NCBI GenBank assembly: GCA_963732905.1 | Contig: CAVTBM010000011.1 | Coordinates: forward strand, 12,686 to 76,685 | Reading direction: 5' to 3' | Length of the DNA stretch: 64,000 nt | Source: an uncultured Bacteroidales bacterium | GTDB taxonomy: Bacteria > Bacteroidota > Bacteroidia > Bacteroidales > GCA-2748055 | In this document: piece by piece, positions 6,855 through 32,629 of the stretch | Layout: every line of letters starts with the position of its first letter | Numbering within the stretch: position 1 is the first letter of the stretch | Notes under the pieces: model-generated | Seen by the model: the letters and a program-made list of their open reading frames with translations, nothing else | Database searches by the model: none | What the model was told of the DNA's origin: nothing | Position numbers and translations under genes: made by a program

Positions 6855-7241
6855 GTGCGGGGTTTAGAAGCCAAGATAATAAAATATAAAAGATTTAAAA
6901 ATTTGAGGAACCAATTTGGCACCTTAAGTTGGGGTGGCGTTCGTTATGCCCCAATGGCTTTTACAGAACAGGGTGTAGCCATGCTATCAAGTGCTTTAAA
7001 CAGCCAAAGAGTCATCGCTGTAAACATCCAAATTATACGGATCTTCACTAAAATGCGGGAGTTGTTTTCTACTCATAAAGAAATCCTTCAAAAACTTAAA
7101 CAGCTGTAGAAAAAAGACATAGATCAGGATGAAAAGATCATATTGATTTTTGAATATCTAAAGCAACCGGAAAAAGCCAAACAGGAAGAACCGGACCAAA
7201 AAAATCGCACCTCCATAGGTTACAAGCAAAACAAAAAGTAA
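6855..7241 (+). pseudogene. ORF6N-domain gene fragment: 5'-truncated, with an in-frame TAG
   Basis: WGGVRYAPMAFTEQGVAMLSSALNSQRVIAVNIQIIRIFTKMRE matches the ORF6N core. The N-terminal ~60 aa are missing because the fragment abuts the GH30 start. After TAG at 7107-7109 the same frame continues (KKDIDQDEKIILIFEYLKQ...) to TAA 7239-7241. Confidence 0.65.
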
Positions 7242-7525
7242 TAGTCACCCCCTTCACCTTCCACATATCCGACCCTTCTGCCCCCGATCCCTATCAGGGT
7301 TAGCTTTGGATGTTGCTTAAGAGGTGAAAATGAGGTGGTGCGTTCAGATGATCCGGAGATGAGTTCCTGGATTTTTTCTTTTAACTAAACGGCTAAGCCC
7401 TCATAGCCTGCCCCATTTTAACGGGGAACACCCCTAAAAAATCAATGAAAAGATGAATAACTAATTAAAAACACACAAAAATCTTCAGTTAAAGAGCTCA
7501 ATTAAAAGTCTTCTTGCGATAAAGC

Positions 7526-7556
7526 TTTGGCAGATATTAAAAAAATGCTAATTTTA
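7526..7556 (+). promoter_or_regulatory. Promoter-like box TTTG-N19-TAATTTTA
   Basis: TTTG at 7526-7529 and TAATTTTA at 7549-7556, a 7/8 match to the Bacteroidota -7 consensus TAnnTTTG, with a 19-nt spacer. Identical in all three module copies. Confidence 0.35.
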
Positions 7557-7577
7557 ATCTACGATAGTGTTCGTCCC

Positions 7578-7610
7578 AAACCTGACAGGTTTTAAAAACC
7601 TGTCAGGTTT
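7578..7610. promoter_or_regulatory. Perfect 15-bp stem / 3-nt loop hairpin AAACCTGACAGGTTT-TAA-AAACCTGTCAGGTTT
   Basis: Arms 7578-7592 and 7596-7610 are exact reverse complements. The hairpin lies 21 nt after the -7-like box and 23 nt before ATG 7634. Confidence 0.85.
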
Positions 7611-7633
7611 AGGATGTACTGTTTGATGAAGGC

Positions 7634-8646
7634 ATGATCAACATGAAAAACCAAACGCCTGAATACGAGTATTTTTTAAGGTACCATCCCGGCAATACAC
7701 GTGTTGTATTGAATACAGAAGCACAATTTGTAGAACAACACGATTATTACCCGTTTGGTATGGAGTTCGCCGGACGACAGGGAGGGGATATCAAATACCG
7801 CTATGACGGTAAGGAGCTGCAGGATATGGAAATCGGGGGAAAAGGATTGGATTGGTACGATTACGGGGCACGATTTTATGATTCCCGCATGGGGAAGTGG
7901 AATTCTCAAGAACCTAAAGCCGAATGTTATTATCAACAATCTTTATATATTTATTCAGGGAATAATCCAATATTATTCCATGATTTTGATGGGAATGATT
8001 ACGGCGTTACCATTGATCAAGGGTCAAAAACCATTACCATCAGTGCAGTATATTTATCCGACAAAAAAGGCATGCCAACATTAAGATGATCAGTTAATGA
8101 AATTAATAATTTAAGTGGCAAATATGTTTTTGTGCCAGGTGGAAAAGCTGCAATCAAGACTGGGCAGACAAATGCATATTCTGTCAATTTTCAACTTACT
8201 ACCGACATAGCTGAAGAAAATGCAACTTTTACCGACCAAAATACTGGAGAAACAGTTACATATGGATCCCAAGCGGACAAAATAGCAACTGACGATAACT
8301 CCGGGGTAGTAAATAGCTATAATATCGTTGAGAATGACGATACACCTAAAGCTGGGGGAGCTGGATCAAATCAAATAGATGTTGAATTATCATCCTCAAA
8401 ATCAACTTCGTTTCTAAGCATGAAATTGGACATACTTTAGGAATGGGGCATAGTTCTGGTATTATGGCTCCAGTAGGAGCTGCTGGAAATTTTGATGCGG
8501 GACAAATTCAACAAACCTTGTCAGGTGTAAATATTGGTGGCAACAAACGAAGTGATCCAAATGCCCCTGGAATTGGTAAGATGCTCGGTGGTCAAACAAA
8601 TGAAGGACTTGAAAATGGTCGAGTAATGTCTACAAAAAGACGATGA
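7634..8646 (+). pseudogene. Orphan Rhs/YD C-terminal tip 1 with a metzincin-like metallopeptidase toxin domain (nonsense plus frameshift)
   Basis: RHS core end: EYEYFLRYHPGNTRVVLNTEAQFVEQHDYYPFGMEFAGRQGGDIKYRYDGKELQD...[13 protein letters not shown]. In-frame TGA at 8087-8089, after which the same frame continues to 8440. A frame switch near 8390-8415 leads into the 8389-8646 frame, which encodes HEIGHTLGMGH (8419-8451), an exact HExxHxxGxxH motif. Confidence 0.75.
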
Positions 8647-10355: not shown

Positions 10356-10606
10356 ATTAAGGCAAAATCTTGATGATTTTGATATCCCGCAAGAAGCACG
10401 AAACTTTCTCACCGGATTGTCCAAAAAGGCCCCATCGGGGTCAGAGAGCGATAGAATAATTGACAGGTAAGGTTCCCCGGCGCCCCATAGGGTGTGCAAC
10501 CAATTTTGAAAAGAGAATAAAGGAAATCTAGATGAAATTCCATAATCTTTGAAAAGAGGGGGCTTGCTTTTAAATTGTATTTTAATACAGGAGAACAGGA
10601 TATGTA

Positions 10607-10946
10607 TTCGATTTTTTATTGTAAAAACCTGAAACCCTCACGCTGATTTTTTCCTCTTTTTCCCATTAATTGGTGAAGCATTCCCGGACAGTTACTTCGT
10701 GTAGTTGCTTTCTAAAGTTATAAAACATTGGTGCGAAAGATTGAAAGCACCCTGATTGTGCGGCGGATATCCAGGCCGGGTCGATTACTGATGGCTGAAG
10801 AATTACAATTCCGGCAGGTACAGTATATGGCAGGGCAAAAGTATGTGAGTTCGACTGAACGGTACCAGCTGAATAACCTGCGTAAATTGCAGAGCAAAAT
10901 AGATAAACCACATCCTTTAGGGAAAATTGAAGATCACAATTTGTGA
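10607..10946 (+). pseudogene. Tyrosine recombinase/integrase 3'-end remnant, copy 1
   Basis: Encodes ...LQFRQVQYMAGQKYVSSTERYQLNNLRKLQSKIDKPHPL, the catalytic-Tyr region of Bacteroidota-type integrases with His replaced by Gln. The frame is broken upstream at ACTGATGGCTGAAGAATTACAAT. Homologous to 16760-17081 and 19890-20222. Confidence 0.7.
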
Positions 10947-11016
10947 CCTCCAACCTGATTCGCAAAATGCGATACCAGGATTAAAAAGTTATTCTCTGTA
11001 ATAAGAATTAAAGAAA

Positions 11017-12051
11017 ATGAGAAAAGCAGTTACCCCTTCATTTGAAGACTTCTACAAAAGGATAAAAGAAATCCTGGAAACAACTCGTACCAGGATCTAC
11101 CAAACGGTAAATTTTGAAATGGTACAGGCCTATTGGAACATAGGCCGGATTGTTGTTGAAGAGGAGCAAAAGGGCAAAGAAAGAGCTGAATACGGCAGCT
11201 ATTTAATAGAAACTCTTTCAGAAAGGCTTACCAAGGAATATGGGAAAGGATTTACAAAGAGCAATTTAAAGTATATGCGACAGTTTTATCAGACTTTTGA
11301 AAAAAGTCACGCACTGCGTGGCGAATTATCCTGGACCCATTATCGCCTGTTGTTAAAAGTTGAAAATAAAAGTGCCCGTGAGTTCTATATCGAAGAAACC
11401 ATAAGGGGGAACTGGAGCACCAGGCAACTTGAACGGCAGATCAACTCTTTGTACTATGATCGCACATTAATGAGCCGGGATAAAAAGGGAATGATCATGG
11501 ATGGGCGGGCGTTGCAGGATAAAATGCAGCCGGAAGATATTATCAAGGACCCATATGTTTTAGAGTTCCTCGATGTAAGAGAAAATGAGAAACTCGCAGA
11601 ACGGGAGCTGGAGTTTGCTCTTATTGAAAAACTACAGCATTTATTACTTGAATTGGGTACTGGTTTTTCTTTTATCAGGCGTCAATACAGAATTACAGCA
11701 GATACAGATCATTTTTTTATTGACCTGGTTTTTTACAATTACATTTTAAAATTCTTTTTACTGATCGATCTTAAAATAGATAAGCTAAGTCACCAGGACA
11801 TAGGACAGATGGACTTTTATGTACGCTTCTTCGAGGAAAATGTAAAACAGCCCGGGGATAATCCAACAATAGGGCTTATTCTCTGTACCGAAAAGAATAA
11901 AACAATTGTTAAGTACAGTCTACTCAATGAAAGCAGGCAGATCTTTGCATCAAAGTATCAGATGTATTTACCAACGGAGAAACAGTTAAAAAAAGAGATC
12001 CAACGAGAGAAAGAACTGATTGAGCAGGAAAAAAAGCTCTCAAAAGAATAA
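11017..12051 (+). CDS. DUF1016/YhcG-family PDDEXK nuclease-like protein
   Basis: N-terminal YQTVNFEMVQAYWNIGRIVVEEEQKGKERAEYGSYLIETLSERLTKEYGKGF and C-terminal nuclease core ELGTGFSFIRRQYRI...FFIDLVFYN...LIDLK are characteristic of this family. Confidence 0.8.
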   Translation: MRKAVTPSFEDFYKRIKEILETTRTRIYQTVNFEMVQAYWNIGRIVVEEEQKGKERAEYGSYLIETLSERLTKEYGKGFTKSNLKYMRQFYQTFEKSHALRGELSWTHYRLLLKVENKSAREFYIEETIRGNWSTRQLERQINSLYYDRTLMSRDKKGMIMDGRALQDKMQPEDIIKDPYVLEFLDVRENEKLAERELEFALIEKLQHLLLELGTGFSFIRRQYRITADTDHFFIDLVFYNYILKFFLLIDLKIDKLSHQDIGQMDFYVRFFEENVKQPGDNPTIGLILCTEKNKTIVKYSLLNESRQIFASKYQMYLPTEKQLKKEIQREKELIEQEKKLSKE

Positions 12052-12134
12052 TTTTCATGTTGTATAAAAACTGCAACTACCGGTTATACAATTTAATTCA
12101 TTAACCAATCACCCTCCCCGCATCCAACCCTTCT

Positions 12135-12242
12135 GCAGCGGTTTTTTGTCATGATTTATCTGCTGGATTTTTTATGCAGGCAGTCCTTTTGCAGTTGCCG
12201 ATTGGGCCGCATATGGCAAAAGCCACGCCCGGAAAGTGCTGC
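12135..12242. repeat. Long imperfect palindrome (cassette-end element), copy with a 31-nt insertion
   Basis: GCAGCGGTTTTTTGTCATG...CCTTTTGCA / TGGCAAAAGCCACGCCCGGAAAGTGCTGC. The inner stem CTTTTGC/GCAAAAG and the outer GCAGC/GCTGC are complementary. Confidence 0.6.
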
Positions 12243-12413
12243 GCCTGATACTTAACAGGGTTGACTTTGGGGCTTACCTAAGTGATTAAAAATGCAGTGG
12301 TCTGTTCAAATAATCCGGGAACAGTCTGGATTTTTTTCTCTTAATTGAAGTAATTGAAAACACAGAAAAATCTTCAGTTAAGGGCTCAATTAAAAGTCTT
12401 CATGCGCTAGAGC

Positions 12414-12444
12414 TTTGGCAGATATTAAAAAAATGCTAATTTTA
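12414..12444 (+). promoter_or_regulatory. Promoter-like box TTTG-N19-TAATTTTA (copy 2)
   Basis: TTTG at 12414-12417 and TAATTTTA at 12437-12444. Confidence 0.35.
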
Positions 12445-12465
12445 ATCTACGATAGTGTTCGTCCC

Positions 12466-12498
12466 AAACCTGACAGGTTTTAAAAACCTGTCAGGTTT
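12466..12498. promoter_or_regulatory. Perfect 15-bp hairpin (copy 2)
   Basis: Same sequence as 7578-7610. Confidence 0.85.
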
Positions 12499-12594
12499 AC
12501 GATGTACTGTTTGATGAAGGCATGATCAACATGAAAAACCAAACGCCTGAATTCGAGTATTTCTTAAAGAGACCATCCCGGTAATACAGGTGTT

Positions 12595-13509
12595 GTGCTG
12601 AATACAGAAGCACAATTTGTAGAACAACATGATTATTACCCGTTCGGTATGGAGTTCGCCGGACGTCAGGGAGGGGATATCAAGTACCGCTATAACGGGA
12701 AAGAACTGCAGGATATGAAAATCGGGGGAAGAGGTTTGGATTGGTACGATTATGGGGCGAGGTTCTATGACCCGGCATTAGGTAGGTGGAATGTTCAAGA
12801 TCCCTTGGCGGAATATCACTTTAACCAATCTCCATATAACTACGTAGAAAATAATCCTTTGCTTTATATTGATCCCTTTGGACTAAATAAAGAAGATCGT
12901 CAAGAAAGAAGAAGACAGAGAAGAGCTAAAAGAAGGAATCAAAAAGTTCCAGAGGACCTAAGATATGATCTACCAGGAGTGGATTGTGTCGGCTCAGCTC
13001 CAAGTACTCCCAAACCCATTGATCCAAAAAATTTAGCTAACAAAGGTGGAACTGTACCTGGGGGCATCTTTCTCTGGAGTATTTTTGGTGAAGGTTCAGC
13101 TGGCATCGGAACTACCAACAAAGATGTCGAAAGCCTTAATCTTGATTGGTTGCTTATTTTGCTTATAGCTCAGCATGGGAGTATCCCCACTGAGAGAATT
13201 GAGGCAATAAATGAAGCAATTGCCAAGGCAAAAAATGCTATAGAGGAAGCTACAGTAACTTCGGATGAAGAGATTTATGAGAAGAATACAGGTAATTCTA
13301 AGGCTGCTAGTCCTCAAAAGAAGACAATTGTGAAAACATATTCAGAGAAATCAAATAAAGAAGTTGTTTCTAAGCGGGGATTTTATAATCGATTTAACAA
13401 GGATACAACCAAACTCTACGAGGTTCGTCCAAAATCAGGTGATACCATTTGGGTATGGCCGACCAATCCTGATGGGACTGTCAAAAATCCACCTGAACCA
13501 TATAAATAA
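12595..13509 (+). CDS. Orphan Rhs/YD C-terminal tip 2 (canonical PxxxxDPxGL, unknown toxin domain)
   Basis: YYPFGMEFAGRQGGDIKYRYNGKELQD...[27 protein letters not shown]...NNPLLYIDPFGL, then an Arg-rich linker RQERRRQRRAKRRNQK and ~190 aa with no motif I recognise. The module ATG at 12522 is out of frame because of a 1-nt insertion (AAAGAGACC vs AAAGGACC) and stops at 12582-12584. Confidence 0.75.
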   Translation: MLNTEAQFVEQHDYYPFGMEFAGRQGGDIKYRYNGKELQDMKIGGRGLDWYDYGARFYDPALGRWNVQDPLAEYHFNQSPYNYVENNPLLYIDPFGLNKEDRQERRRQRRAKRRNQKVPEDLRYDLPGVDCVGSAPSTPKPIDPKNLANKGGTVPGGIFLWSIFGEGSAGIGTTNKDVESLNLDWLLILLIAQHGSIPTERIEAINEAIAKAKNAIEEATVTSDEEIYEKNTGNSKAASPQKKTIVKTYSEKSNKEVVSKRGFYNRFNKDTTKLYEVRPKSGDTIWVWPTNPDGTVKNPPEPYK

Positions 13510-13516
13510 ATTGGTA

Positions 13517-14314
13517 ATGAAAAAAAATTCGTTAATTATTATATTTATTGTTATTGTAAGTAGTTGTCAATGTAATAAGAAAAAGGAATATTATTCTGAC
13601 GGATCGATTAAGATTGAGAAAATTTATTGTAAGAACAACGAACATATTAAAACGATCGAGCACTATCGAAATGGTCTCGTTTCATCGATTACATTTGAAA
13701 ATGTCAAAGGTAATTTAGATGGAAAATGTTCCTATTTTGATAAAAACGGTAATATCGAAAGTTCAGTTGTTTATAAAGATGGTATTTCAGATGGTATAGC
13801 AAAATGGTTTTATCCTAATGGCAAAATAATGGAAGAAGTGTATATAATAAATAAAGAAAGAGTTGGACCTCATATATATTATGATTTATCTGGAAATATA
13901 GTAAGAAAAAACTTTTATATTTTAATAAATAATAAATCATTCTTCAATGGGTATCTAGTTTATAATAAATTTGGAAATATTATTCCCGATTCGTCTATGT
14001 ATGTATTTTTAAAAACTGATAAGGACACAGTTAATATTAACGATACTATAACCTATTGGTTTAATCAATATCTATCAAAAGGGATTCAAGTTAAAGCCAT
14101 TATAGGTAATATTGATAAAAATTTCAATATCGTTGATTCAACCACAATTAAATATGTAAACCCAAATTTAAAAAACAAGTTTTCACCCACAAAAGTTGGA
14201 AATGATACAATTAGGATCATTTATGAATTGAAAAAAGAAACAGCAAATAATACTATTGATAAGATATATAAAGGCCGTATATTACTTGAAAAGATTTTAA
14301 ATGTTAGAGAGTAA
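13517..14314 (+). CDS. Immunity-like lipoprotein with MORN-variant (YwqK-like) repeats
   Basis: Lipobox MKKNSLIIIFIVIVSSC. Repeats YYSDGSIKIEKIY, YFDKNGNIESSVVYKDGISDGIAKWFYPNGKIMEEVY. The YwqK/COG2849 family is a known antitoxin/immunity family. The start is taken at ATG 13517, 8 nt after the tip stop. Confidence 0.65.
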   Translation: MKKNSLIIIFIVIVSSCQCNKKKEYYSDGSIKIEKIYCKNNEHIKTIEHYRNGLVSSITFENVKGNLDGKCSYFDKNGNIESSVVYKDGISDGIAKWFYPNGKIMEEVYIINKERVGPHIYYDLSGNIVRKNFYILINNKSFFNGYLVYNKFGNIIPDSSMYVFLKTDKDTVNINDTITYWFNQYLSKGIQVKAIIGNIDKNFNIVDSTTIKYVNPNLKNKFSPTKVGNDTIRIIYELKKETANNTIDKIYKGRILLEKILNVRE

Positions 14315-14829
14315 ACTGGTATGATTACGGGGCAAGGTTTTATGATCCGGCGATTGCAAGGTGGAATAAAAAAAGACAACAAGACATAAATGATGAATTG
14401 CGACTTCTTTCAATGGTACATAATAAAATAGTTAATAATAATACAGGGAATAATAATGATAAATATCCTGGATGGTCTGGATTAATAGGAATTTCGCTAG
14501 GCAGTCTCGATTTGTGGAATAATATGAAGGATAATTTATTGGCATCAAAATCAATCATAGAAAATCAAATTGAGGAGATTAATGAAAGATTAAAGAACAA
14601 GAATGCATCTTCTTCAGAGGTTGATAAATTACAAAACAATTTGAATGATTTGGTTAAGAAACAAGCTCAAATTGATTCGGTTATTGAAGCTGTCATAAGA
14701 GTTATTGATAATTCTAAAAAATATCAAGAACAATTAACTTCTCCAAGAGATGTCACAAGAACTAGTTCTTCTGGTGAAAATGATTATAAAAAAAGTCTTG
14801 ATATCGTTAAGAAATGGGGAAATGAATAA
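14308..14829 (+). pseudogene. Orphan Rhs tip fragment starting at [11 protein letters not shown], with no start codon of its own
   Basis: The frame opens at 14308, overlapping the stop of the preceding gene: (RVN)[31 protein letters not shown].... It then has an Asn-rich and coiled-coil-like tail (NQIEEINERLKNKNASSSEVDKLQNNLNDLVKKQAQ). The first ATG is at 14398. Confidence 0.65.
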
Positions 14830-14852
14830 AATTGAATTAATTATAGTTAGTT

Positions 14853-15245
14853 ATGAAGCAAGACTATGACGATATTCAGAATATTCTAACGGATTATTAC
14901 TTAAATGATGATTACATTAGTGTAATAAATACATGGGAATCTAAGATAAATTATAAATTATTACCTAAATTCGATAATAAATTACGAAATGAAGTACTTC
15001 ATGCGTTAATTATAAGTTATAAAAAAACCGAGAATATTAAACAGAGCATTTTTTATATAAATAAATATATTAATAAATTGTTAAATAATCATCAAAATGA
15101 AAACTTTGATGAAGAATTGCTTTTCTGTTTTACAGTTCTCGCATCAATATATGCATCTAAACAAAATTATCTAAAAGAATTAAAAACGCTATATAAATAT
15201 AATAAATTTAATAACAAAAATAAAAAAAACAAAAAACCTAATTGA
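14853..15245 (+). CDS. Immunity-like small cytoplasmic protein (helical, Lys/Asn-rich tail)
   Basis: 130-aa ORF 23 nt after the tip stop. Very AT-rich. No recognisable motif. Confidence 0.45.
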   Translation: MKQDYDDIQNILTDYYLNDDYISVINTWESKINYKLLPKFDNKLRNEVLHALIISYKKTENIKQSIFYINKYINKLLNNHQNENFDEELLFCFTVLASIYASKQNYLKELKTLYKYNKFNNKNKKNKKPN

Positions 15246-15261
15246 TGATTTAGAAGTACAT

Positions 15262-15492
15262 TTGTTTAATAAATTTCAGATGATGAACAAATTTTATTCT
15301 TACATATTTATTTCTTTGATAATTTTACATTTGATAATTGAAAATTTTTTTTCAATATCAATTAGTAATAAATTCTTTCTTGTGTTGTGGACAGCTTTTA
15401 TTATATTTTCTATGATATGGATTGTAATCACATTGCTAAATAAAAAACTTGCCTTAAAATTTTTTAGATTTCTTATCAGTGTTGTCCAGTAA
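15262..15492 (+). CDS. Small 2-TM membrane protein (possible second immunity gene)
   Basis: YSYIFISLIILHLIIENFF and FLVLWTAFIIFSMIWIVITLL are hydrophobic helices. The start is uncertain (listed TTG at 15262, ATG at 15280). Confidence 0.4.
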   Translation: MFNKFQMMNKFYSYIFISLIILHLIIENFFSISISNKFFLVLWTAFIIFSMIWIVITLLNKKLALKFFRFLISVVQ

Positions 15493-15605
15493 AACCGGAA
15501 GTTACTAATATTTTACAATCAAATGCCTGAAAATCAATCATACATTTTTCATTTTTCAAAAGCAAGCCCACCTCATTTCCGGGAATAAGGAATTTTCATA
15601 CTCAT

Positions 15606-15701
15606 TCGCTCGTTGTTTGTAAGCCTTCGGCTAACTGCATCTTGAAATAATACCTTCTACCAGTTAGCTTTGTTGCAAAGCAAGCCTTCGGCTAACGAGC
15701 G
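15606..15701 (+). other. Intergenic element: 15-bp direct repeat AAGCCTTCGGCTAAC x2 enclosed by an 8-bp stem
   Basis: Direct repeats at 15621-15635 and 15682-15696. CGCTCGTT (15607-15614) pairs with AACGAGCG (15694-15701). GCTAACTG (15630-15637) pairs with CAGTTAGC (15661-15668). Confidence 0.3.
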
Positions 15702-15868
15702 CCTTTGGTTTCATAGCGTAATGGATCCCTCAAAGAGAATAGCCAGTTCAGACTTTGGTTATTCTTACTCCCTCAATGTCAAGATGTTTTAGCTCCACGA
15801 TTATTGAGTGAAACAAATTTATTTCTAAAGATTTATCTTTACATTTGTAAAACAATGCTTGGAAGATC

Positions 15869-16096
15869 ATGAGGACAATACTGATAAAAATACCCGATAG
15901 TGTTGATATGTCAGACTATGACTTTTCAATGATGATTGCTGCAAAGCTTTATGAAGATAGAAAACTGTCTTCCGGTCAAGCTGCCGAAATGGTTGGTTTA
16001 ACCAAAAGAGCTTTCATAGAAATTCTCGGAAAATACGGAGTTTCGTTGTTCAGCAATTCAATTGATGATCTTCATTCAGATATAGCAAATGCCTAA
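15869..16096 (+). CDS. UPF0175-family antitoxin
   Basis: LSSGQAAEMVGLTKRAFIEILGKYGVSLF is the typical UPF0175 core. There is an 8-nt overlap with the downstream PIN-like gene. A perfect TAnnTTTG box (TACATTTG) sits at 15840-15847. Confidence 0.75.
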   Translation: MRTILIKIPDSVDMSDYDFSMMIAAKLYEDRKLSSGQAAEMVGLTKRAFIEILGKYGVSLFSNSIDDLHSDIANA

Positions 16097-16559
16097 GGTC
16101 ATTATTTCCGATACCAGTGTTCTGAATCTATTTCAAAAAATCAGCAGACTCGACCTGCTTCACGGAATTTATGAAGAGATCATTACAACGCCTGAAGTCG
16201 CAGAGGAATATGGGGACGAGTTACCTATATGGATAAATATTCAAGTAGTTACCGACAGAAAATATCAGGAACTATTGGAATTACAGGTTGACAAAGGTGA
16301 AGCCAGTGCCATCGCACTGGCTAAAGAATATTCAGATGTATTATTATTGCTCTATGATTTAAAGGCCAGGAAATTAGCTACTAAATTGAATTTGAAATAT
16401 ACCGGGACACTTGGTATTATAACGAAGGCAAAGAATAAAGGCTTAATTGAAAAGGTTAAACCTGTCCTGGATAAAATTCAAAAGACAGATTTCAGGATAT
16501 CAGAAAAGATACTTAAAGAGATTCTTTTACTGAATGACGAAGACGTGCAAGAGAGATAA
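16089..16559 (+). CDS. DUF3368-type PIN-like nuclease toxin
   Basis: VIISDTSVLNLF...GEASAIALAKEY...LLLLYDLKARKLATKLNLKYTGTLGIITKAKNKGLI matches the DUF3368 pattern. Note LLYD where LLDD would be typical. Confidence 0.7.
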   Translation: MPKVIISDTSVLNLFQKISRLDLLHGIYEEIITTPEVAEEYGDELPIWINIQVVTDRKYQELLELQVDKGEASAIALAKEYSDVLLLLYDLKARKLATKLNLKYTGTLGIITKAKNKGLIEKVKPVLDKIQKTDFRISEKILKEILLLNDEDVQER

Positions 16560-16622
16560 ATCACATTTGAGCAAGTTATACCTAGGATTGGTATCTGAAT
16601 TTCATCAAGTCTCAAAAAAAAT

Positions 16623-17081
16623 CATTGGTATGATTACGGGGCACGGTTCTATGAACCCCGGCTGGGTAGGTGGCATGTGATTGTTCCGGCCACTGAGGCC
16701 AATCACTTTGAATGGTAACGTTCATATGCCGGGCCTTAAACACATGAGCTCATCACACAAATTCGATTTTTTATTGTAAAAAACCTGAAATCCTCACGCT
16801 GATTTTTTCCTCTTTTTCCCATTAATTGGTGAAGCATTCCCGGACAGTTACTTCGTGTAGTTGCTTTCTGAAATTATAATAAACTGGTGCGAAATCTAGA
16901 ATGCAACCAGATTATGCGGCGGATATCCGGGCCGGGTCGATTTTTGATGGCCGAAGAATTACAATTCCGGAAGGTGCAGTATATGGCAGGTCATAAGTAC
17001 GTGAGTTCTACGGAACGGTAACAGCTGAATAACCTGGATAAGTTGCAGGAACGGATAAACAAATATCACCCGCTGAGTTAA
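16623..17081 (+). pseudogene. Rhs junction stub plus tyrosine recombinase 3' remnant, copy 2
   Basis: [31 protein letters not shown] (16623-16718), then ...KVQYMAGHKYVSSTER*QLNNLDKLQERINKYHPLS*. The catalytic Tyr codon is TAA. Near-identical to 19751-20222. Confidence 0.75.
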
Positions 17082-17131
17082 ACTAAAAGTGAATTTTAAT
17101 CGTTAAATTTGTGTACATAATGAGAGTAAAT

Positions 17132-17368
17132 ATGAATCTTCAGTCCAAAAAATTAGAGCTGGTTCAGCTTATACTGAATACTAAAAAACCCTCTATCCTT
17201 GCCAGGGTTGAAGCTGTACTAAAAGGGAAAGCTGTCGATTGGTGGGATGAGATAAGCCCGGAGGAACGGGAAGCCATAGAAAAGGGCTTATCAGAGGCAG
17301 ATAAAGGAGAGCTTATACCTCATGAAGAAGTCATGAAAGAAGTAAGGGCAAAATATAAGCTCGACTAA
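17132..17368 (+). CDS. Antitoxin partner of the RelE/ParE-family toxin
   Basis: Small acidic protein (WWDEISPEEREAIEKGLSEADKGELIPHEEVMKEV). TAATG overlap with the toxin gene. The start could also be 17111 or 17120. Confidence 0.6.
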   Translation: MNLQSKKLELVQLILNTKKPSILARVEAVLKGKAVDWWDEISPEEREAIEKGLSEADKGELIPHEEVMKEVRAKYKLD

Positions 17369-17664
17369 TGAAGATTAGTTGGACTCCCACAGCAAGAAGG
17401 ACTTATTTTAAAGTTCTCGATTATTTAGCGGAGAACTGGACCAAAAGAGAAGTTGCCCATTTTATAAGCGAAGTTGAAAGCTTATTGAATCAGATCACCA
17501 ACAATCCTGAAATGTTCCAGGCCTCCAGAAAAAAGAAAAGCGTCAGAAAGGCTCTAATCACGAAACACAACGCGCTTTATTACAGGATAAAACCCAGAAA
17601 AAAAGAACTAGAGCTAATCACCTTCTGGGATAATCGCCAAAACCCCAATAAATTAACTTATTAG
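17368..17664 (+). CDS. RelE/ParE-family type II toxin
   Basis: 98 aa. WTPTARRTYFKVLDYL...ALYYRIKPRKKELELITFWDNRQNP is a typical ParE/RelE fold signature. Confidence 0.7.
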   Translation: MKISWTPTARRTYFKVLDYLAENWTKREVAHFISEVESLLNQITNNPEMFQASRKKKSVRKALITKHNALYYRIKPRKKELELITFWDNRQNPNKLTY

Positions 17665-17694
17665 TTATCCACCCTCCCCGCCTCCAACCCTTCT

Positions 17695-17770
17695 GCAGCT
17701 GTTTTTGTCATGCCTTTTGCCGTTGCCGATTGCACCGCGTATGGCAAAAGCCACGCCAAAAAACTGCTGC
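17695..17770. repeat. Long imperfect palindrome (cassette-end element)
   Basis: GCAGCTGTTTTTGTCATGCCTTTTGCC (17695-17721) against GGCAAAAGCCACGCCAAAAAACTGCTGC (17743-17770). About 80% complementary, with a 21-nt loop. Confidence 0.7.
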
Positions 17771-17997
17771 CCCAGGCAACGGTACATAATGTGTCGGTAT
17801 TTGAAACCCTCCACCAGAAACGGGATCTTCCTTCCAACCGGAATTTTTTCTTTTAACTGAACGGCGAAGCCCTCATAGCATACACTGTTTTGACTTGTAG
17901 CACCTCTAAAAAATCAATTAATAGGTAAATAACAAACTGAAAACTCGGAAAAATCTTCAGCTAAAGGGCTCAATTAAAAGTCTTCGTTTGCTAAAGC

Positions 17998-18028
17998 TTT
18001 GGCAGATATTAAAAAAATGCTAATTTTA
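17998..18028 (+). promoter_or_regulatory. Promoter-like box TTTG-N19-TAATTTTA (copy 3)
   Basis: TTTG at 17998-18001 and TAATTTTA at 18021-18028. Confidence 0.35.
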
Positions 18029-18047
18029 ATCTACGATCGTTCGTCCC

Positions 18048-18080
18048 AAACCTGACAGGTTTTAAAAACCTGTCAGGTTT
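18048..18080. promoter_or_regulatory. Perfect 15-bp hairpin (copy 3)
   Basis: Same sequence as 7578-7610. Confidence 0.85.
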
Positions 18081-18103
18081 ACGATGTACTGTTTGATGGA
18101 GGC

Positions 18104-19003
18104 ATGATCAACATGAAAAACCAAACGCCTGAATACGAGTATTTCTTAAAGGACCATCCCGGTAATACACGTGTTGTGCTGAATACAGAAGCACAATTTG
18201 TAGAACAACACGATTATTACCCGTTTGGTATGGAGTTCGCCGGACGACAGGGTGGAGATATCAAGTATCGGTATAACGGAAAGGAAATGCAGGATATGAA
18301 AATCGGGGGGAGAGGGTTGGATTGGTACGATTACGGATTTAGATTTTACGACCCGGCTTTAGGTCGGTTCCCAAGCCTGGATCCAAAAGCAGATGAGTTT
18401 GAAAATCTCTCTCCATACAACTATGCCAGTAACAATCCGGTAACATGTATTGATCTATGGGGAATACAAGGCCGGCCAGTAAATAAAGTTCGAGATCAGA
18501 AGGGAAATATTACAGCTGCTACAACCAGTGCTCAACAGTCAACGTATATTTCTACAATGGAGCCAAAAACTATTAGTAATAACTCAATTGAATTTAAACC
18601 GACAAATGAGTCTATATATCAGAGTGCAAATTGGTGGGAACTTACAACTGCTCCAGATATACAAGAATGGTTAAAAGTTGACAAAGTTCCATCGGCTGTA
18701 GCTGTAGGAGGACTTATAACTGTTCTAAGCGCAGCTGTTCCAGAAGTCATTTCAGGTATAACAGATTTCGGTTCTAATGTCACTTTAAATATTTCTACAT
18801 CAATTGAATCTTCAACAACAATTGCAGTCGGAACTGGTGTGGTAGTGGGTGCTGCTAAAACATTAACTGATGCCCCACCTGATACGCCTGAAATACCTAA
18901 CCCGGTAATAGAGGTTTCTTCAGAAATGACTGAATATATTATTCAATCTACACACGAGTTTATGAAAAATATTCAAAATTCAAATGATAAAAAGTCTAAA
19001 TAG
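18104..19003 (+). CDS. Orphan Rhs/YD C-terminal tip 3 (intact ORF) with a Gly/Ala/Val-rich hydrophobic C-terminal domain
   Basis: MINMKNQTPEYEYFLKDHPGNTRVVLN...YYPFGMEF...GLDWYDYGFRFYDPALGRFPSLDPKADEFENLSPYNYASNNPVTCIDLWGIQG. The tail contains VPSAVAVGGLITVLSAAVPEVISG and TTIAVGTGVVVGAAKTL. Confidence 0.8.
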   Translation: MINMKNQTPEYEYFLKDHPGNTRVVLNTEAQFVEQHDYYPFGMEFAGRQGGDIKYRYNGKEMQDMKIGGRGLDWYDYGFRFYDPALGRFPSLDPKADEFENLSPYNYASNNPVTCIDLWGIQGRPVNKVRDQKGNITAATTSAQQSTYISTMEPKTISNNSIEFKPTNESIYQSANWWELTTAPDIQEWLKVDKVPSAVAVGGLITVLSAAVPEVISGITDFGSNVTLNISTSIESSTTIAVGTGVVVGAAKTLTDAPPDTPEIPNPVIEVSSEMTEYIIQSTHEFMKNIQNSNDKKSK

Positions 19004-19047
19004 AGTTAGAAATAAATTTGTATTTTTAATTCATCAACTCATAATTT

Positions 19048-19269
19048 ATGTGTTTTTTGGATAAAAAAAGGCTTAAATATATCTATTTTTATTTTATGAT
19101 TCTTTGTTTTCAAATTATATTGGTGAGAATATTTGGTGAACCTGATTTATTAAAAACACCAAGCTCATCACAAACTTGGGGAGAAAGTATTAATGATTTT
19201 CCAATATATATGATAACATCGTTATTCTTAACGTTAATATTCTATTTTTTTGATCGCTTCTCTAAATAA
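19048..19269 (+). CDS. Immunity-like 2-TM membrane protein
   Basis: YIYFYFMILCFQIILVRIF and FPIYMITSLFLTLIFYFF helices. AT-rich. 44 nt after the tip 3 stop. Confidence 0.5.
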   Translation: MCFLDKKRLKYIYFYFMILCFQIILVRIFGEPDLLKTPSSSQTWGESINDFPIYMITSLFLTLIFYFFDRFSK

Positions 19270-19284
19270 TAATTACAATGCAAT

Positions 19285-19728
19285 ATGACAAACTTTAGGA
19301 ATATTCGAAATTTAAATATTGTATTTTCATTTATTCTTATAGTTATGTATTTTCGTTCATTACGATATTTAATAATGATTATAACTCATTATAATGTATT
19401 TTTTAAGAGAAGTTACTTTCAAATATTGTTCCTTTCACCTAGATTAGTTGTGTTTATTAATACTTTTAATATAATTATTGGAGTATGTATATTAATAAAT
19501 GCTTTTGCTCTATTAAATAAAATGCAAAAAAGTATAATATTTATTAAAATATTACTTCCAATAAGTGCTATACTAAATTTACCATTTTTCTATAAAAATA
19601 TAATAGACTATGAGGATAATTTACATAAATATGTTAGCCTTGGAATTACAATGTTGATTTATATAATTTATTTAACCACATATCTTTTTTACAATAGTCG
19701 TAAAATCAAGCTTTTATTTACGAATTAA
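19285..19728 (+). CDS. Immunity-like polytopic membrane protein (about 4 TM)
   Basis: Four hydrophobic segments, e.g. NIVFSFILIVMYF, VVFINTFNIIIGVCILINAFALL, VSLGITMLIYIIYLTTYLF. AT-rich. Confidence 0.5.
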   Translation: MTNFRNIRNLNIVFSFILIVMYFRSLRYLIMIITHYNVFFKRSYFQILFLSPRLVVFINTFNIIIGVCILINAFALLNKMQKSIIFIKILLPISAILNLPFFYKNIIDYEDNLHKYVSLGITMLIYIIYLTTYLFYNSRKIKLLFTN

Positions 19729-19750
19729 CATATAATACAAAAAGGATGTA

Positions 19751-20222
19751 AACTGGTACGATTACGGGGCACGGTTCTATGATCCACGCCTAGGTAGGTG
19801 GCATGTTATTGTTCCGGCCACTGAGGCCAATCACTTTGAATGATATCGTTCATATGCCAGGCCTTAAACACATGAGCTCATCACAAAAATTCGATTCTAT
19901 ATTGTAAAAACCTGAATTCCTCACGCTGATTTTTTGCTCTTTTTCCCATTAATTGGTGAAGCATTCCCGGACAGTTACTTCGTAGTTGCTTTCTAAAGTT
20001 ATAATAAACTAGTGCGAAATCTTGAATGCACCCTGATTGTGCGGCAGATATCCGGGCCGGGTCGATTACTGATAGCCGAAGAATTACAATCTCCGGCAGG
20101 TTCAATATATGGGAGGGCATAAGTATGTGAGTTCTACGGAGCGGTATCAGCTCAATAACCTGGGTAAGGTACAGAGCAAATTGGAGAAATATCATCCATT
20201 GTCACATAATAGTCGCAAATAA
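19751..20222 (+). pseudogene. Rhs junction stub plus tyrosine recombinase 3' remnant, copy 3
   Basis: [30 protein letters not shown] (to 19843), then ...KNYNLRQVQYMGGHKYVSSTERYQLNNLGKVQSKLEKYHPLSHNSRK* ending at TAA 20220-20222. The frame is closed upstream by TAG in ACTGATAGCCGAAG. Confidence 0.75.
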
Positions 20223-20262
20223 GTTACCCTAATTGGTAACTTTGAATTAAATTTGTACTTGT

Positions 20263-20574
20263 ATGAGAATAATAAAAGAGAAAACTCTCATTGAATATTG
20301 CCGGAAGAGTAAATACAAGAAGGCGGAGGAATCCTTGAAATCCTGGGTTTATGAGGTAAAATACTCTACCTGGAATAATGTGAATCAGCTGAAACTGAAA
20401 TATAGAAATGCCAGCGTAATAAGTTCAAAAAGAGTAGTTTTCAATATCAAAGGCAATGATTACAGGTTAATCGTAGATATCGAATACAAACTAAAAATAA
20501 TTTTCATTGTCTGGTTTGGGACACATGAGGAATATGTTAGGATAGATGCAAAAACAATAAGATATGAATATTAA
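20263..20574 (+). CDS. higB: HigB-family type II toxin (mRNA interferase)
   Basis: 103 aa. LKSWVYEVKYSTWNNVNQLKLKYRNASVISSKRVVFNIKGNDYRLIVDIEY...FIVWFGTHEEY is the HigB_toxin pattern. Confidence 0.8.
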   Translation: MRIIKEKTLIEYCRKSKYKKAEESLKSWVYEVKYSTWNNVNQLKLKYRNASVISSKRVVFNIKGNDYRLIVDIEYKLKIIFIVWFGTHEEYVRIDAKTIRYEY

Positions 20575-21001
20575 AATATTGAAAACAGAAGAGGAATATA
20601 ACACAGCCTGTGAAAGAATTTATGAGCTGATACATAGTACAGAACAGTCTATTGAGCCTGATAGTCCAAAGGGAGAAGAACTGGAACTTTTGTCCTTACT
20701 TGTAGAAAAATATGAGCAGGAACATAATTATATGGATGCACCGGACCCGGTGGAAGCTATAAAGTTCAGAATGGAACAGATGAATTTAAAGCAAAAGGAT
20801 GTTGCTCCATTATTTGGAGGAAAGACACGAGTGTCAGAAGTCCTTCATGGGAAAAGAGCATTAACGCTTAAGATGATTACTTTATTAAACCGATATCTTG
20901 GCATCCCCCTGGATTCATTAATTAGTGGGAATAAGGACATAAAACTTGAAGCTGAAAATAAAGAGAAGTTACTAAAATATCATCCATCCAGGATTACCTG
21001 A
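20564..21001 (+). CDS. higA: HigA-family HTH antitoxin
   Basis: 11-nt overlap with higB. EEYNTACERIYELI...PDPVEAIKFRMEQMNLKQKDVAPLFGGKTRVSEVLHGKRALTLKMI (Xre-type HTH). Confidence 0.8.
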   Translation: MNIKILKTEEEYNTACERIYELIHSTEQSIEPDSPKGEELELLSLLVEKYEQEHNYMDAPDPVEAIKFRMEQMNLKQKDVAPLFGGKTRVSEVLHGKRALTLKMITLLNRYLGIPLDSLISGNKDIKLEAENKEKLLKYHPSRIT

Positions 21002-21062
21002 AAAGATCTAGGGCCACAATGATTTAAAAATCCACCACTACCCCACTCCCAATCCTTCTGAA

Positions 21063-21133
21063 GCAGTATTTTGGTGTGGCTTTTGCTATGCTCGACGCCA
21101 TCTGCAACTGTAATAGCCACACCAAAATACTGC
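21063..21133. repeat. Cassette-end palindrome, perfect 19-bp arms (fourth, partial module 21031-21140)
   Basis: GCAGTATTTTGGTGTGGCT (21063-21081) is the exact reverse complement of AGCCACACCAAAATACTGC (21115-21133). It is preceded by the leader variant TCCACCACTACCCCACTCCCAATCCTTCTGAA. Confidence 0.85.
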
Positions 21134-21198
21134 ATCACCAGTCTATGTTAACATAATATAAACAGCTGTAATCCTAAAAAGCTTATCTTTGTGTTACT

Positions 21199-21483
21199 AT
21201 GGATCGCAATGAAATAAATACACGGATCATTAAATACCTTAAGCCCTTCGAACCCGAAAAAATTGGCATATTCGGATCTTATGCCAAAATGGAGGAAAAA
21301 CCGGGAAGTGATATTGATATCCTGGTAAAGTTTAAGAAAACCATAACATTGCTTCAGCTTGCCCAAATTCACAGAGAACTTTCTCAAATCCTGGGGAAAA
21401 AAGTTGATTTGGTCACAGAGCCATCCCTAAAAAATGAACGGCTCCGAAAATATATTTACTCTGATCTTAAGATCATCTTTTAA
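21199..21483 (+). CDS. mntA: MNT-type nucleotidyltransferase antitoxin
   Basis: IGIFGSYAKMEEKPGSDIDILV is the minimal nucleotidyltransferase GS...DxD motif. TAATG overlap with the HEPN gene. TATCTTTG -7 box at 21186-21193. Confidence 0.8.
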   Translation: MDRNEINTRIIKYLKPFEPEKIGIFGSYAKMEEKPGSDIDILVKFKKTITLLQLAQIHRELSQILGKKVDLVTEPSLKNERLRKYIYSDLKIIF

Positions 21484-21818
21484 TGAAAGACGACCGGATT
21501 TACATTGACCATATACAGCAAAGTATCGAGAGAATTGAATCTTATTTATCCGGGAAAGATCATGATTCATTTTCTGATGACTATTTAACACAGGATGCAG
21601 TCGTAAGACAATTGGAAATAATTGGAGAAGCGACTAAAAGGATTTCAATGGAATTCAAAAGAGAGAATCCCCAGGTACCCTGGCTTGATATGGCTGGGAT
21701 GAGGGATGTGCTTATTCATGGTTAGATTGATGTGGATCTGGATATCATATGGAAAACCGTTTCGGAAAGCATCCCTGTCCTAAAACTGCTGCTCAAAAAC
21801 CTGAAGTATATAGGTTAA
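21483..21818 (+). pseudogene. hepT: HepT/DUF86 HEPN toxin with a premature TAG
   Basis: RQLEIIGEATKRIS...MRDVLIHG then TAG (21723-21725) where Tyr is expected. The same frame continues IDVDLDIIWKTVSESIPVLKLLLKNL to TAA 21816-21818. Confidence 0.7.
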
Positions 21819-22014
21819 ATTTTATCTGGTATGATGATAAGAACCAGAATCCAGGATATTGAAATCTCCCAAAAAAAGGAATGGCCTGTGAATAAGGGAA
21901 TATCCGCTGAGGAAACAATTCTTCTCCCTGCTGAACGGGGGCATGGAAAAGGCCGGTGACAGAGGAATGGTTTTCATAGCACTTATCTTTTAAGGTTGGG
22001 GTTGAAAAACGGCC

Positions 22015-24854: not shown

Positions 24855-25000
24855 GGAGGTGAGGAAGTTATGAGGTTATGAGGTTATGAGGTTATGAGGT
24901 TATGAGGTTATGAGGTTATGAGGTTATGAGGTTATGAGGTTATGAGGTTATGAGGTTATGAGGTTATGAGGTATATGAAGTTATGAGGTTATGAAGTTGG
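24851..25000. repeat. 8-bp microsatellite (GAGGTTAT)n, 12 perfect units plus degenerate flanks
   Basis: Perfect units span 24872-24967. Degenerate units (GAGGAGGT, GAGGAAGTTAT, GAGGTATAT, GAAGTTAT, GAAGTTGG) lie on both sides. The repeat begins at the GH2 stop codon (TGA 24852-24854). Confidence 0.95.
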
Positions 25001-25039
25001 AAGACAGGAAAGAAGGAAACCGGAAAACCGAACGTAGAT

Positions 25040-25212
25040 GTGATGCTTCACGTCTCTTCGGAAAAACGAAACCGGAATATCCATTGAGAACTAGAGACGT
25101 GATGCTTCACGTCTCTTCGGAAAAACAAAACCGGTATATCCATTGAAAACCGGAACGTAGATGACGTGATGCTTCACGTCTCTTCGGAAAAACGAAACCG
25201 GAATATCCATTG
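25040..25212. repeat. Three tandem ~47-nt repeats, each with hairpin AGACGTGA-TGCT-TCACGTCT
   Basis: GTGATGCTTCACGTCTCTTCGGAAAAACGAAACCGGAATATCCATTG at 25040-25086, 25099-25145 and 25166-25212. The spacers are 12 and 20 nt. Confidence 0.9.
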
Positions 25213-25362
25213 GAAACCCGGACCGTATAAGGAAAAAAATGGTTCAAATGCCATGGAGTGATGATTTCCCTATACAAAAAACGCCTGAAATATTATTGCA
25301 GTAAGGGAAAAAATTGCATCAGGTTTCAGACTTTCATCAAAAAGCATATCATTATTTTGGGT

Positions 25363-32489: not shown

Positions 32490-32629
32490 AAAGGATAGAG
32501 AATCAGTGAAAATTTCTTATGCCACTCAGAACTATCCTGCACCTGTAATTCCACTGAAATTTTATTGCAGTCAGCCCATTTTTTTCAGAAGAATCTAGTC
32601 ATTCATAAAAATGGCCCTCAACTTTTAGA

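Follow-up and report, generated by a model that had tools for sequence, protein, structure and literature searches.

A C-rich leader, in most copies followed by a long imperfect palindrome, recurs between 7 and 21 kb in the 64,000-nt stretch of contig CAVTBM010000011.1 analysed here (the window), which comes from an uncultured Bacteroidales bacterium. The region of the window from 6.85 to 21.9 kb is an orphan Rhs toxin-immunity array. Its genes are co-oriented and low in GC (26-41% versus ~47% outside), and three of its open reading frames (ORFs; 7634-8089, 12595-13509 and 18104-19003) score above the cut-off for TIGR03696, the RHS-associated core domain, before running on into unrelated C-terminal regions, with small genes, including MORN-type ones, coming next. 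Four cargo units, namely an ORF6N pseudogene, a DUF1016 gene, a ParDE pair and a HigBA pair, lie in the array, each with a leader on its 3' side (Table 1). An original prediction made from the sequence compared the leader and palindrome to an integron attC site that closes each cargo cassette, and named a shared factor-independent terminator as the alternative. We show here that a family of elements shares a conserved non-coding right arm, whose first ~115 nt consist of the leader and palindrome. This family appears to be undescribed and, judging from its sequence, appears to insert into Rhs toxin genes and to swap their toxic tips.

Leader, palindrome and the elements that carry them

With up to one mismatch, the 12-mer CCAAYCCTTCTG has exactly four matches in the window, all on the + strand (7269, 12124, 17684 and 21049), against a chance expectation of 0.71; four matches were reached in 0 of 100 shuffles, and a 27-mer leader matches at 12110 and 17670 with an expectation of 0. 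From the end of the preceding gene to the leader the distance is 5 nt for the ORF6N pseudogene, 2 nt for ParE (stop at 17664), 28 nt for HigA (stop at 21001) and 56 nt for DUF1016 (stop at 12051). An imperfect palindrome of 76-109 nt follows in three of the four copies. At 21 kb, 21063-21081 is the exact reverse complement of 21115-21133, and the fold has a z-score of -8.9 as DNA and -9.3 as RNA. Pairing in the 17-kb copy is imperfect (17695-17721 with 17743-17770, 24 of 32 aligned positions), and the z-score of its fold as DNA is -2.9 for the + strand and -5.4 for the - strand. In the homologous 12-kb copy 31 nt are inserted after GTCATG, and it does not fold better than shuffled sequences (z = +0.4 to +0.9). 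The 7-kb copy can be aligned with the 12-kb copy on both flanks, which shows that the palindrome is lacking precisely between two CTGC repeats. The recurrence of the leader, the placement of the palindromes behind the DUF1016, ParE and HigBA units, both pairings, the insertion and the exact loss had all been described in the original prediction and were borne out.

The palindrome, or hairpin, is an optional backbone module with the fixed layout S1, S2, centre, S3, loop, S3', centre', S2', S1'. In the 17-kb copy the 5' half reads GCAGCTG (S1), TTTTTG (S2), TCATGC (centre) and CTTTTGCC (S3), and a 21-nt loop leads into the 3' half, GGCAAAAG, CCACGC, CAAAAA and ACTGCTGC; 10 of 12 copies have GCAGCAG and CTGCTGC at their ends. 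From 11 hairpin copies a covariance model was built; run with filters off, it found only the 12-, 17- and 21-kb palindromes in the window, and in 262 kb of related loci it found the hairpin at its single expected position only. In these sequences the hairpin is tied to one context, and no copy was found downstream of unrelated genes in either the window or the 262 kb. The main hairpin also lacks a T-run, the next bases being CCCCAGG or ATCACC, and the terminator scan makes no + strand call there. Both results tell against the shared factor-independent terminator. Rfam has no family at gathering score in the window and none at E <= 1 in five related loci; at E <= 1 the stretch from 6.8 to 22 kb gave just sub-threshold eukaryotic miRNA-precursor models, which are generic hairpin matches. 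A G-quadruplex or i-motif in the leader was rejected, as the CCC tracts vary from 2 to 4 between copies.

Where else is this arrangement found? A gapped pattern scan of the GTDB species genomes gave one true match, in a Bacteroidales metagenome-assembled genome (locus L003), and metagenomes gave six. Two of the three genome-collection matches (L001 and L002, Caldilineaceae) arose by chance in an unrelated stretch of high GC that has neither leader nor hairpin, and the metagenome match L007 is also due to chance. Further elements (L011-L021 and L026-L028) were reached through contigs of homologues of the second of two recombinases (rec2), which number more than 2,100 at E <= 1e-20. In L004 and L010 a toxin tip with its immunity gene, XRE, primase, recombinase 1 (rec1), rec2, cargo, leader and hairpin follow one another in order. 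An intact element measures 7.7-8.3 kb. Its left part comprises a WYDYG motif, a C-terminal toxin, an immunity gene, an XRE regulator on the - strand, a primase, rec1, rec2 and a single variable cargo slot; its right part comprises the C-rich leader with or without the hairpin, a dif-like inverted pair around a small hairpin and T-run, a conserved non-coding stretch that includes a promoter-like segment, and a short ORF ending in WYDYG. The primase is of the DnaG type (880-940 aa, with zinc ribbon and Toprim domains), and rec1 and rec2 are tandem XerC/D-like tyrosine recombinases, 24% identical to each other. The non-coding right arm extends over 0.45-1.2 kb, after which comes an Rhs-core stub, and the ORFs flanking the elements carry TIGR03696. 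A viral contig scan found nothing, the plasmid collection held no match by DNA or by rec2 protein, and literature searches returned no WYDYG-bordered element with a primase and two recombinases.

The window holds what is left of such elements. A ~340-nt repeat (families D3-D6) that precedes the DUF1016, ParDE and HigBA cargo units is a tyrosine recombinase 3' end: rec2 survives as its last 40-60 codons, once per cargo unit, three times in all. With a full-length relative as query, tblastn recovers only residues ~266-323, at 10731-10922, 16965-17078 and 20079-20213, and primase, rec1 and XRE have no tblastn match in the window. The proposed association of the hairpin with the 3' side of cargo and with tyrosine recombinases is thus upheld. 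The leader and hairpin follow three unrelated cargoes because they are part of the element backbone, not of the cargo.

The cargo slot, one per element, lies between the last rec2 codons and the leader. It is filled by Fic in L004, L011, L020 and L021, by ParDE with its own promoter-like sequence in L003, L010, L012 and the 17-kb unit of the window, by ORF6N in L013-L018 and at 7 kb in the window, by DUF1016 in L026 and at 12 kb in the window (a fragment with leader is present in L012), and by HigBA at 21 kb in the window; it is empty in L019 and L028, where the leader comes 6 nt after the rec2 stop. By tblastn the ORF6N pseudogene is 48% identical to residues 66-178 of the L013 ORF6N cargo. 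The 344-aa DUF1016 cargo type of the window also fills the slot of the L026 element, and the ParDE type recurs with an identical upstream GTGAATATAAATCGTTAAATTTG in L003, L010 and L012. Leader variants do not follow cargo type. Between L010 and L004 the primase is 39%, rec1 35% and rec2 27% identical, versus 97% for the hairpin and 74-80% for the subsequent leader and arm. Moreover, L003, L012 and the 17-kb unit of the window have ParDE like that of L010 together with L004-like rec2 or rec2 remnants, L004 itself carrying Fic. The left recombination joint lies in the final rec2 codons (HP(F/L)EQNNK and the stop). As diverged backbones share hairpin and cargo modules, these modules appear to have been exchanged between unrelated backbones.

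The presence of the hairpin varies even where its surroundings do not. Among Fic cargoes 89-95% identical to each other, it is present in L004 and L011 and absent in L021, whose Fic is 89% identical to that of L004 and whose downstream arm is the same, with the junction CTACCCACAGG/CCAAGCAAAGTAACATAAT. L013-L018, with ORF6N cargo, have complete gene sets and no hairpin. HigBA at 86% identity occurs in an unrelated context (L024, L025) without leader and without hairpin. A second small palindrome, GGAGGTCACAA/TTTGTGACCTCC, lies just past the rec2 stop at ~10935-10960 in the window and at ~10990-11015 in L013; a variant of it stands between AACAAT(G/A)A direct repeats in L012 (~1805-1835) and is absent from L010 and L003, a gain-or-loss pattern like that of the main hairpin.

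Element borders, dif-like sites and the decayed array

Where does an element begin and end? One element with identical rec2 was found in at least two unrelated chromosomal contexts and in tandem (L013-L018, from samples that include JGI 3300071173/3300071270). Pairwise blastn of L013 with L014, L015 and L017 delimits a common block of ~7.75 kb, and identity ends on both sides in or at (A)ATTGGTATGATTACG, that is, inside TGGTATGATTACGG, which encodes WYDYG at the end of the Rhs/YD core. To the left of the element the resident ORF is an ordinary Rhs core, 90.6% identical to another Rhs gene. L019 consists of three tandem units; tandem arrays of the family comprise two to three units, and each unit measures ~7.7-8.3 kb. 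As identity breaks at WYDYG on both sides, the unit extends from one WYDYG motif to the next. The break lies 0.45-0.65 kb downstream of the hairpin, in the WYDYG-coding motif, and not at the hairpin. The short ORF at the right end finishes with VNWYDYG and always reads GTAA(A/G)(T/C)-TGGTATG-ATTAC, a short inverted repeat with a 7-nt spacer. From these borders we infer that integration takes place at the WYDYG motif. The left junctions of L004 and L010 contain no hairpin copy and no dif site.

An inverted pair of dif-like 27-29-mers lies just past the leader or hairpin, 13-17 nt downstream of the latter, and is kept in three element lineages (L003 3786/3889, L004 8011/8113, L011 12525/12627, L013 11644/11745, L019 11934/11994 and L021 3627/3732). 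By sequence, a dif-like layout with an 11-nt XerC arm, a spacer of 5-7 nt and an 11-nt XerD arm resembling TTATGTTAAAT can be recognized in L003-L013, L019 and L021. The XerD arm of Escherichia coli dif is matched at 11 of 11 positions by site B, GGTTCCTATAA-AACGCCA-TTATGTTAAAT (PMC2731167). The arms of the two sites are complementary and the spacers are not, so that a single strand would fold into a forked hairpin like the attP of phage CTX. The pair encloses 33-108 nt of non-coding DNA. In the window the only remnants are ACATAAT sequences at 17784 and 21151. A dif-like site as the integration site was rejected, the element borders lying ~0.5 kb further on, at WYDYG. An invertible switch between the two sites was likewise rejected, as a single orientation is present in all ~12 contigs and the L019 sites are just 33 nt apart.

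Under the WYDYG model each insertion would join the resident Rhs gene to an incoming toxin tip with its immunity gene, and the previous toxin-immunity pair would be displaced downstream as an orphan. The window from 6.85 to 21.9 kb would then be a decayed array of such insertions, from which XRE, primase, rec1 and most of rec2 have been deleted; what remains would be three units (rec2 end, cargo, leader, hairpin, arm and Rhs stub) and a fourth copy truncated on the left. The motif TGGTA(T/C)GATTA(C/T)GG, encoding W-Y-D-Y-G, has six copies in the window (7853, 12742, 14317, 16626, 18323 and 19754), and the array parses cleanly into WYDYG-bounded segments, three of which are elements with internal deletions. 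After each leader, whether or not the palindrome is present, a promoter-like repeat of ~260 nt runs into the next Rhs-core stub. The units at 16626-17074 and 19754-20200 have a common deletion joint, with the WYDYG stub leading straight into the last ~100 codons of rec2, and differ in cargo (ParDE and HigBA); through repeat family D9, 19754-19910 is 92% identical to the 16626 unit. Instead of having decayed independently, these two units may be non-autonomous mini-elements.

Conservation and possible function of the hairpin

Is the fold itself conserved? In a hand alignment of three to four independent lineages, relatives with rec2 only 56-60% identical keep the full hairpin layout with compensatory changes. 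In S1, GCAGCAG/CTGCTGC becomes GCAGTAG/CTACTGC in L026 (C-G to T-A). In S2, TTTTTTG/CAAAAAA is replaced by GGCTTTG/CAAAGCC in L019a and by GGTTTTG/CAAAACC in L028, and L019b (GGCTTG/CAAGCC) has a matched 1-bp shortening on both sides. S3 changes from TTTTTGC/GCAAAAA to TTTTTGA/TCAAAAA in L028 (C-G to A-T). Throughout, the centre stays non-complementary, with TCATGN opposite C(C/A)(A/C)CGC, the 21-kb copy excepted. Covarying stems that flank a conserved non-complementary centre suggest selection for the fold, with a specific internal loop.

The original prediction had argued from the 21-kb copy that structure is maintained over sequence. Support for a conserved fold comes from the stems of distant lineages; within the window the case consists of the 21-kb copy alone, which is the sole copy with a complementary centre and whose 5' arm is the exact complement of its own 3' arm. 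The differences between its arms and those of the other copies had been read as concerted; the exact complementarity stands, but the 3' arm differs from the other copies at just 2 of 19 positions, and a 99.3%-identical strain (L022, L023) has an uncompensated T to A change in the 5' arm of this copy. Other uncompensated changes are a 5' arm position varying between T, C and G, and an A to C change in the 3' arm of L020. In the close family of 11 sequences, 14 of 28 pairs are invariant and double changes occur in two pairs, both from the 21-kb copy; the hairpin sequence itself is conserved at 77-97%. The same two or three arm mismatches are present in every copy but the 21-kb one, which points to shared descent.

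What might the hairpin do? On balance we lean towards a backbone module of an Rhs-targeting element family that acts in cis as a transcript 3'-end or insulator hairpin; as to function, we rank this slightly ahead of a site on single-stranded DNA, with low confidence. The active form of the hairpin would be a folded single strand. In combination with the unstructured C-rich, G-poor tract, it would mark where the transcription unit of recombinases and cargo ends at its 3' side and protect that end, and it would insulate the downstream orphan-toxin promoter, ahead of a candidate hairpin-plus-T-run terminator 70-80 nt further on. Small hairpins with TTTTTCTTTT, separate from the main hairpin, are located 70-80 nt downstream of its site. 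A role in the transcript fits both the position at the rec-cargo 3' end and the dispensability of the hairpin. Additionally, a hairpin 97% identical on backbones whose proteins are only 27-39% identical fits a function reliant on host machinery.

Several points weigh against this interpretation. The main hairpin has no T-run, and terminators and stabilizing hairpins seldom keep a specific asymmetric internal loop across such divergence. The cargo-less elements L019 and L028 carry two to three related hairpins or motifs per arm. The mismatches of the gene strand are C.A or U.C, so that in most copies the complementary strand folds 3-7 kcal/mol better. The covariation between lineages comes from a hand alignment of just three to four of them, and in the close family of 11 sequences it amounts to 0.026, compared with 0.034 for a control slid by -3, with 19 of 500 shuffles reaching 0.026. 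The high identity of the hairpin between distant backbones may mean recent module exchange and not selection. As to the targeting of Rhs genes, RecA-dependent homologous exchange within the conserved Rhs core could yield similar borders.

Could the hairpin instead be read as DNA? Priming signals on single-stranded DNA include the ssi sites of RSF1010 and the origin of phage G4. A protein may bind the folded hairpin through its conserved unpaired centre, beside the forked dif-like hairpin, the site serving either as a priming signal for the DnaG-type primase or as an accessory site for the XerC/D-like pair. We regard this as a tentative possibility, less probable than a role in the transcript. 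The covariation of the stems around a conserved, strand-asymmetric centre speaks for it, as do the constant orientation of the hairpin relative to the element in every copy, the better fold of the complementary strand, and the primase and two recombinases encoded by all intact elements. The two to three TTGTCATG-type motifs or hairpins per arm in L019 and L028, and the dif-like inverted pair 13-17 nt downstream with its resemblance to the folded attP of phage CTX, point the same way. However, L013-L018 and L021 have complete gene sets without the hairpin, and it is 97% identical on backbones whose primase and recombinases are 27-39% identical. There is also no sign of a single-stranded stage, and the element encodes no relaxase. 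The arm motifs occur nowhere else in the elements, including the XRE-primase intergenic region; an XRE operator was likewise rejected as the hairpin arms match nothing in that region. A broader version of the DNA reading is rather unlikely in our estimate. In it, the hairpin and forked dif-like hairpin would be strand-specific folded-DNA sites of mobile elements that form an undescribed class and encode a DnaG-type primase and a pair of XerC/D-like recombinases. Such an element would integrate specifically at the WYDYG codons of Rhs toxin genes, and in doing so would actively exchange toxin tips and give rise to orphan and rAID-like arrays of immunity genes; its intermediate would be single-stranded DNA, as for integron cassettes and phage CTX.

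Two further explanations have to be set beside the transcript hairpin. The palindrome may be neutral or selfish, a small insertion or local inverted duplication subject to slippage between CTGC repeats and with no function in the element. Its presence is polymorphic with loss exactly between those repeats, the second small hairpin after the rec2 stop behaves alike between AACAAT(G/A)A repeats, the close strain has an uncompensated arm change and the 12-kb copy is disrupted. Nevertheless, dispersed copies are absent from the 64 kb and the 262 kb, and the asymmetric-centre layout and covarying stems are kept where rec2 is just 56-60% identical, so we consider neutrality improbable. Least probable of all, and by our reckoning very improbable, is the attC-like reading of the original prediction, in which leader and hairpin would be the site for excision and insertion of cargo cassettes behind rec2. 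Cargo does vary among otherwise similar elements, always between the rec2 end and the leader, with leader variants independent of cargo type, and the fold is conserved with fixed mismatches; the rAID-1 arrays of Bacteroidales have, moreover, been described as reminiscent of integrons (bioRxiv 10.1101/471110). Closure of a cassette by the hairpin is contradicted by the rec2 end before and the 0.45-1.2 kb arm after each copy, by element borders at WYDYG and by the optional nature of the hairpin. Each element has one cargo slot, and no two cargoes are separated by a hairpin alone. One and the same Fic cargo is found in elements that have the hairpin and in one that does not, HigBA stands in another context with no hairpin, and sequence as well as fold is conserved (77-97%). 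Integron core sites (RYYYAAC for R'', GTTRRRY for R') are lacking at the palindrome boundaries, and integron-integrase models score the recombinases far below their cut-offs (TIGR02249, 65-110 bits with a cut-off of 265; NF011946, 35-64 bits with a cut-off of 435).

Known systems and further features of the window

The likeness to integron attC sites thus consists of an imperfect palindrome 3' of promoter-independent cargo genes, with tyrosine recombinases nearby and a fold whose unpaired positions are fixed. Unlike gene-attC arrays, the present family has one cargo slot per 8-kb element, an optional hairpin conserved in sequence, no R'/R'' cores, a XerC/D-like pair without an IntI signature, and mobility borders at WYDYG. 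The nearest described system is rAID-1, Bacteroidales orphan-immunity arrays whose biogenesis was stated to be unknown (Ross et al. 2019, bioRxiv 10.1101/471110; 2025 follow-up, 10.1101/2025.05.03.651265). Their definition calls for an XerD-family recombinase and, after it, two or more co-oriented genes with a GC content of <41% and recurring intergenic motifs, the recombinase being >50% identical to BF9343_RS08045 (Ross 2019). The shared traits are the Bacteroidales host, the XerD-family recombinase, the array of co-oriented, GC-poor toxin fragments and immunity genes, and the repetitive intergenic sequences; by their description, however, rAID-1 arrays have a single recombinase, and no primase, tandem recombinase pair, cargo slot or WYDYG target was reported. 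Of these traits the window has the low-GC co-oriented genes and the repeated intergenic sequences, and of the recombinase just three C-terminal remnants.

Rhs C-terminal displacement and orphan rhs-CT/immunity arrays have been described (Jackson 2009 and Koskiniemi 2014, as cited in PMC5727410), and Rhs-linked integrases were noted earlier without a mechanism. As in those arrays, truncated Rhs-core stubs, toxin tips and immunity genes follow in series and the breakpoints lie at the conserved core end; here, in contrast, the incoming tip is carried by a defined element with a primase and two recombinases, and the breakpoint is one 14-nt motif. Acinetobacter pdif modules often carry toxin-antitoxin cargo. 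They and CTX attP resemble the present elements, as read from the relatives, in dif-like sites whose inverted pair may fold into a forked hairpin, but here the pair encloses non-coding DNA and not cargo, the element borders are not dif-like, and the sites in the window are decayed. With repetitive extragenic palindromes and bacterial interspersed mosaic elements (REP/BIME) and with miniature inverted-repeat transposable elements the hairpin has in common that it is a short, imperfect, 3' intergenic palindrome, polymorphic in presence and flanked by CTGC direct repeats. Unlike them it is not dispersed, every copy standing at one position in one element family.

The hairpin alone is a modest result, a conserved structured module in the non-coding arm of a mobile element; of most value is the family of elements. 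Both the C-terminal displacement of Rhs toxins and the orphan-immunity arrays that accompany recombinases in Bacteroidales matter ecologically, and their origin has been stated to be unknown. The family is a concrete candidate vehicle for toxin-tip displacement, 8 kb long with its own primase and recombinase pair and borders at a 14-nt motif. If this is true, toxin-tip turnover would be driven by an active site-specific mobile element and not by occasional homologous recombination, and the cargo slot (toxin-antitoxin, Fic, DUF1016) would add a second, hitch-hiking layer of variation.

Table 1. Features of the array in window coordinates
Feature	Position	Strand	Remarks
ORF6N pseudogene	6888..7238	+	cargo of left-most, truncated element; Pfam ORF6N; in-frame stop 7109
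C-rich leader, copy 1	7244..7281	+	palindrome absent; junction CCCTTCTGC/CCCC
Small hairpin (ATCCGGAG...CCTGGAT) then TTTTTTCTTTT	7350..7383	+	candidate intrinsic terminator; read from sequence; homologous to 12312-12342
Right arm and promoter-like repeat, into Rhs-core stub ORF, copy 1	7366..7633	+	repeat families D2, D7, D11, D15
Recombinase 2 3' remnant, copy 1	10581..10922	+	repeats D3-D6; 10731-10922 = residues 266-320 of L004 rec2
Cargo 1: DUF1016/YhcG PDDEXK nuclease	11017..12051	+	Pfam
C-rich leader, copy 2	12108..12136	+	
Palindrome, copy 2	12135..12243	+	disrupted by 31-nt insertion; covariance model 28 bits, E = 5e-5
Terminator-like hairpin then T-run	12312..12342	+	~70 nt past palindrome; flagged by terminator scan
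Right arm and promoter-like repeat, copy 2	12340..12594	+	
WYDYG motif, short toxin stub and recombinase 2 3' remnant, copy 2	16626..17078	+	repeat family D9
Cargo 2: ParD-like antitoxin and ParE toxin	17111..17664	+	Pfam
C-rich leader, copy 3	17667..17696	+	
Palindrome, copy 3	17695..17770	+	covariance model 85 bits
Dif-like site A, decayed remnant (GGTACATAATGTGTCGGTATTTGAAACC)	17781..17808	+	ACATAAT invariant in alignment; intact in relatives
TTTTTTCTTTTAACTGA motif after weak hairpin	17832..17860	+	read from sequence
Right arm and promoter-like repeat, copy 3	17838..18103	+	
Orphan Rhs-core stub with C-terminal toxin	18104..19003	+	TIGR03696 57.5 bits (cut-off 32.5); WYDYG 18323-18336
WYDYG motif, short toxin stub and recombinase 2 3' remnant, copy 3	19754..20213	+	
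Cargo 3: HigB toxin and HigA antitoxin	20263..21001	+	Pfam
C-rich leader, copy 4 (diverged)	21030..21061	+	
Palindrome, copy 4	21059..21137	+	perfect 19-nt arms; covariance model 71.5 bits
GTTAACATAAT, left arm of dif-like site A	21147..21157	+	element-family homology ends here; right edge of array

Exact-protein look-ups of the ParE and HigA of the window returned nothing on record. The loci L022 and L023 (ENA sample ERZ25039495; Logan ERR11571143) are 99.3% identical to 14850-21928 of the window, so that a near-identical strain is present in public metagenomes; the ENA sample also holds a 6.2-Mb contig with the three tandem intact elements of L019. A near-palindrome, AAACCTGACAGGTTTT-A-AAAACCTGTCAGGTTT, with 16-nt complementary arms around a single central A, lies at 18044-18079 (region 18039-18089), downstream of a Bacteroidetes-type promoter-like sequence (TTTG...TAATTTTA). 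Equivalents lie near 7.58 and 12.47 kb, and every long orphan Rhs-stub ORF has such a near-palindrome in its 5' leader. Outside the array, ~13 or more tandem copies of the 8-nt GAGGTTAT directly follow a GH2 gene (24832-24988) and are succeeded at 25037-25223 by three tandem units of 59-67 nt, each opening with the hairpin GACGTGATGCTTCACGTC. A 108-nt direct repeat with 82% identity is present at 25355-25462 and, 7.3 kb away, at 32623-32730.

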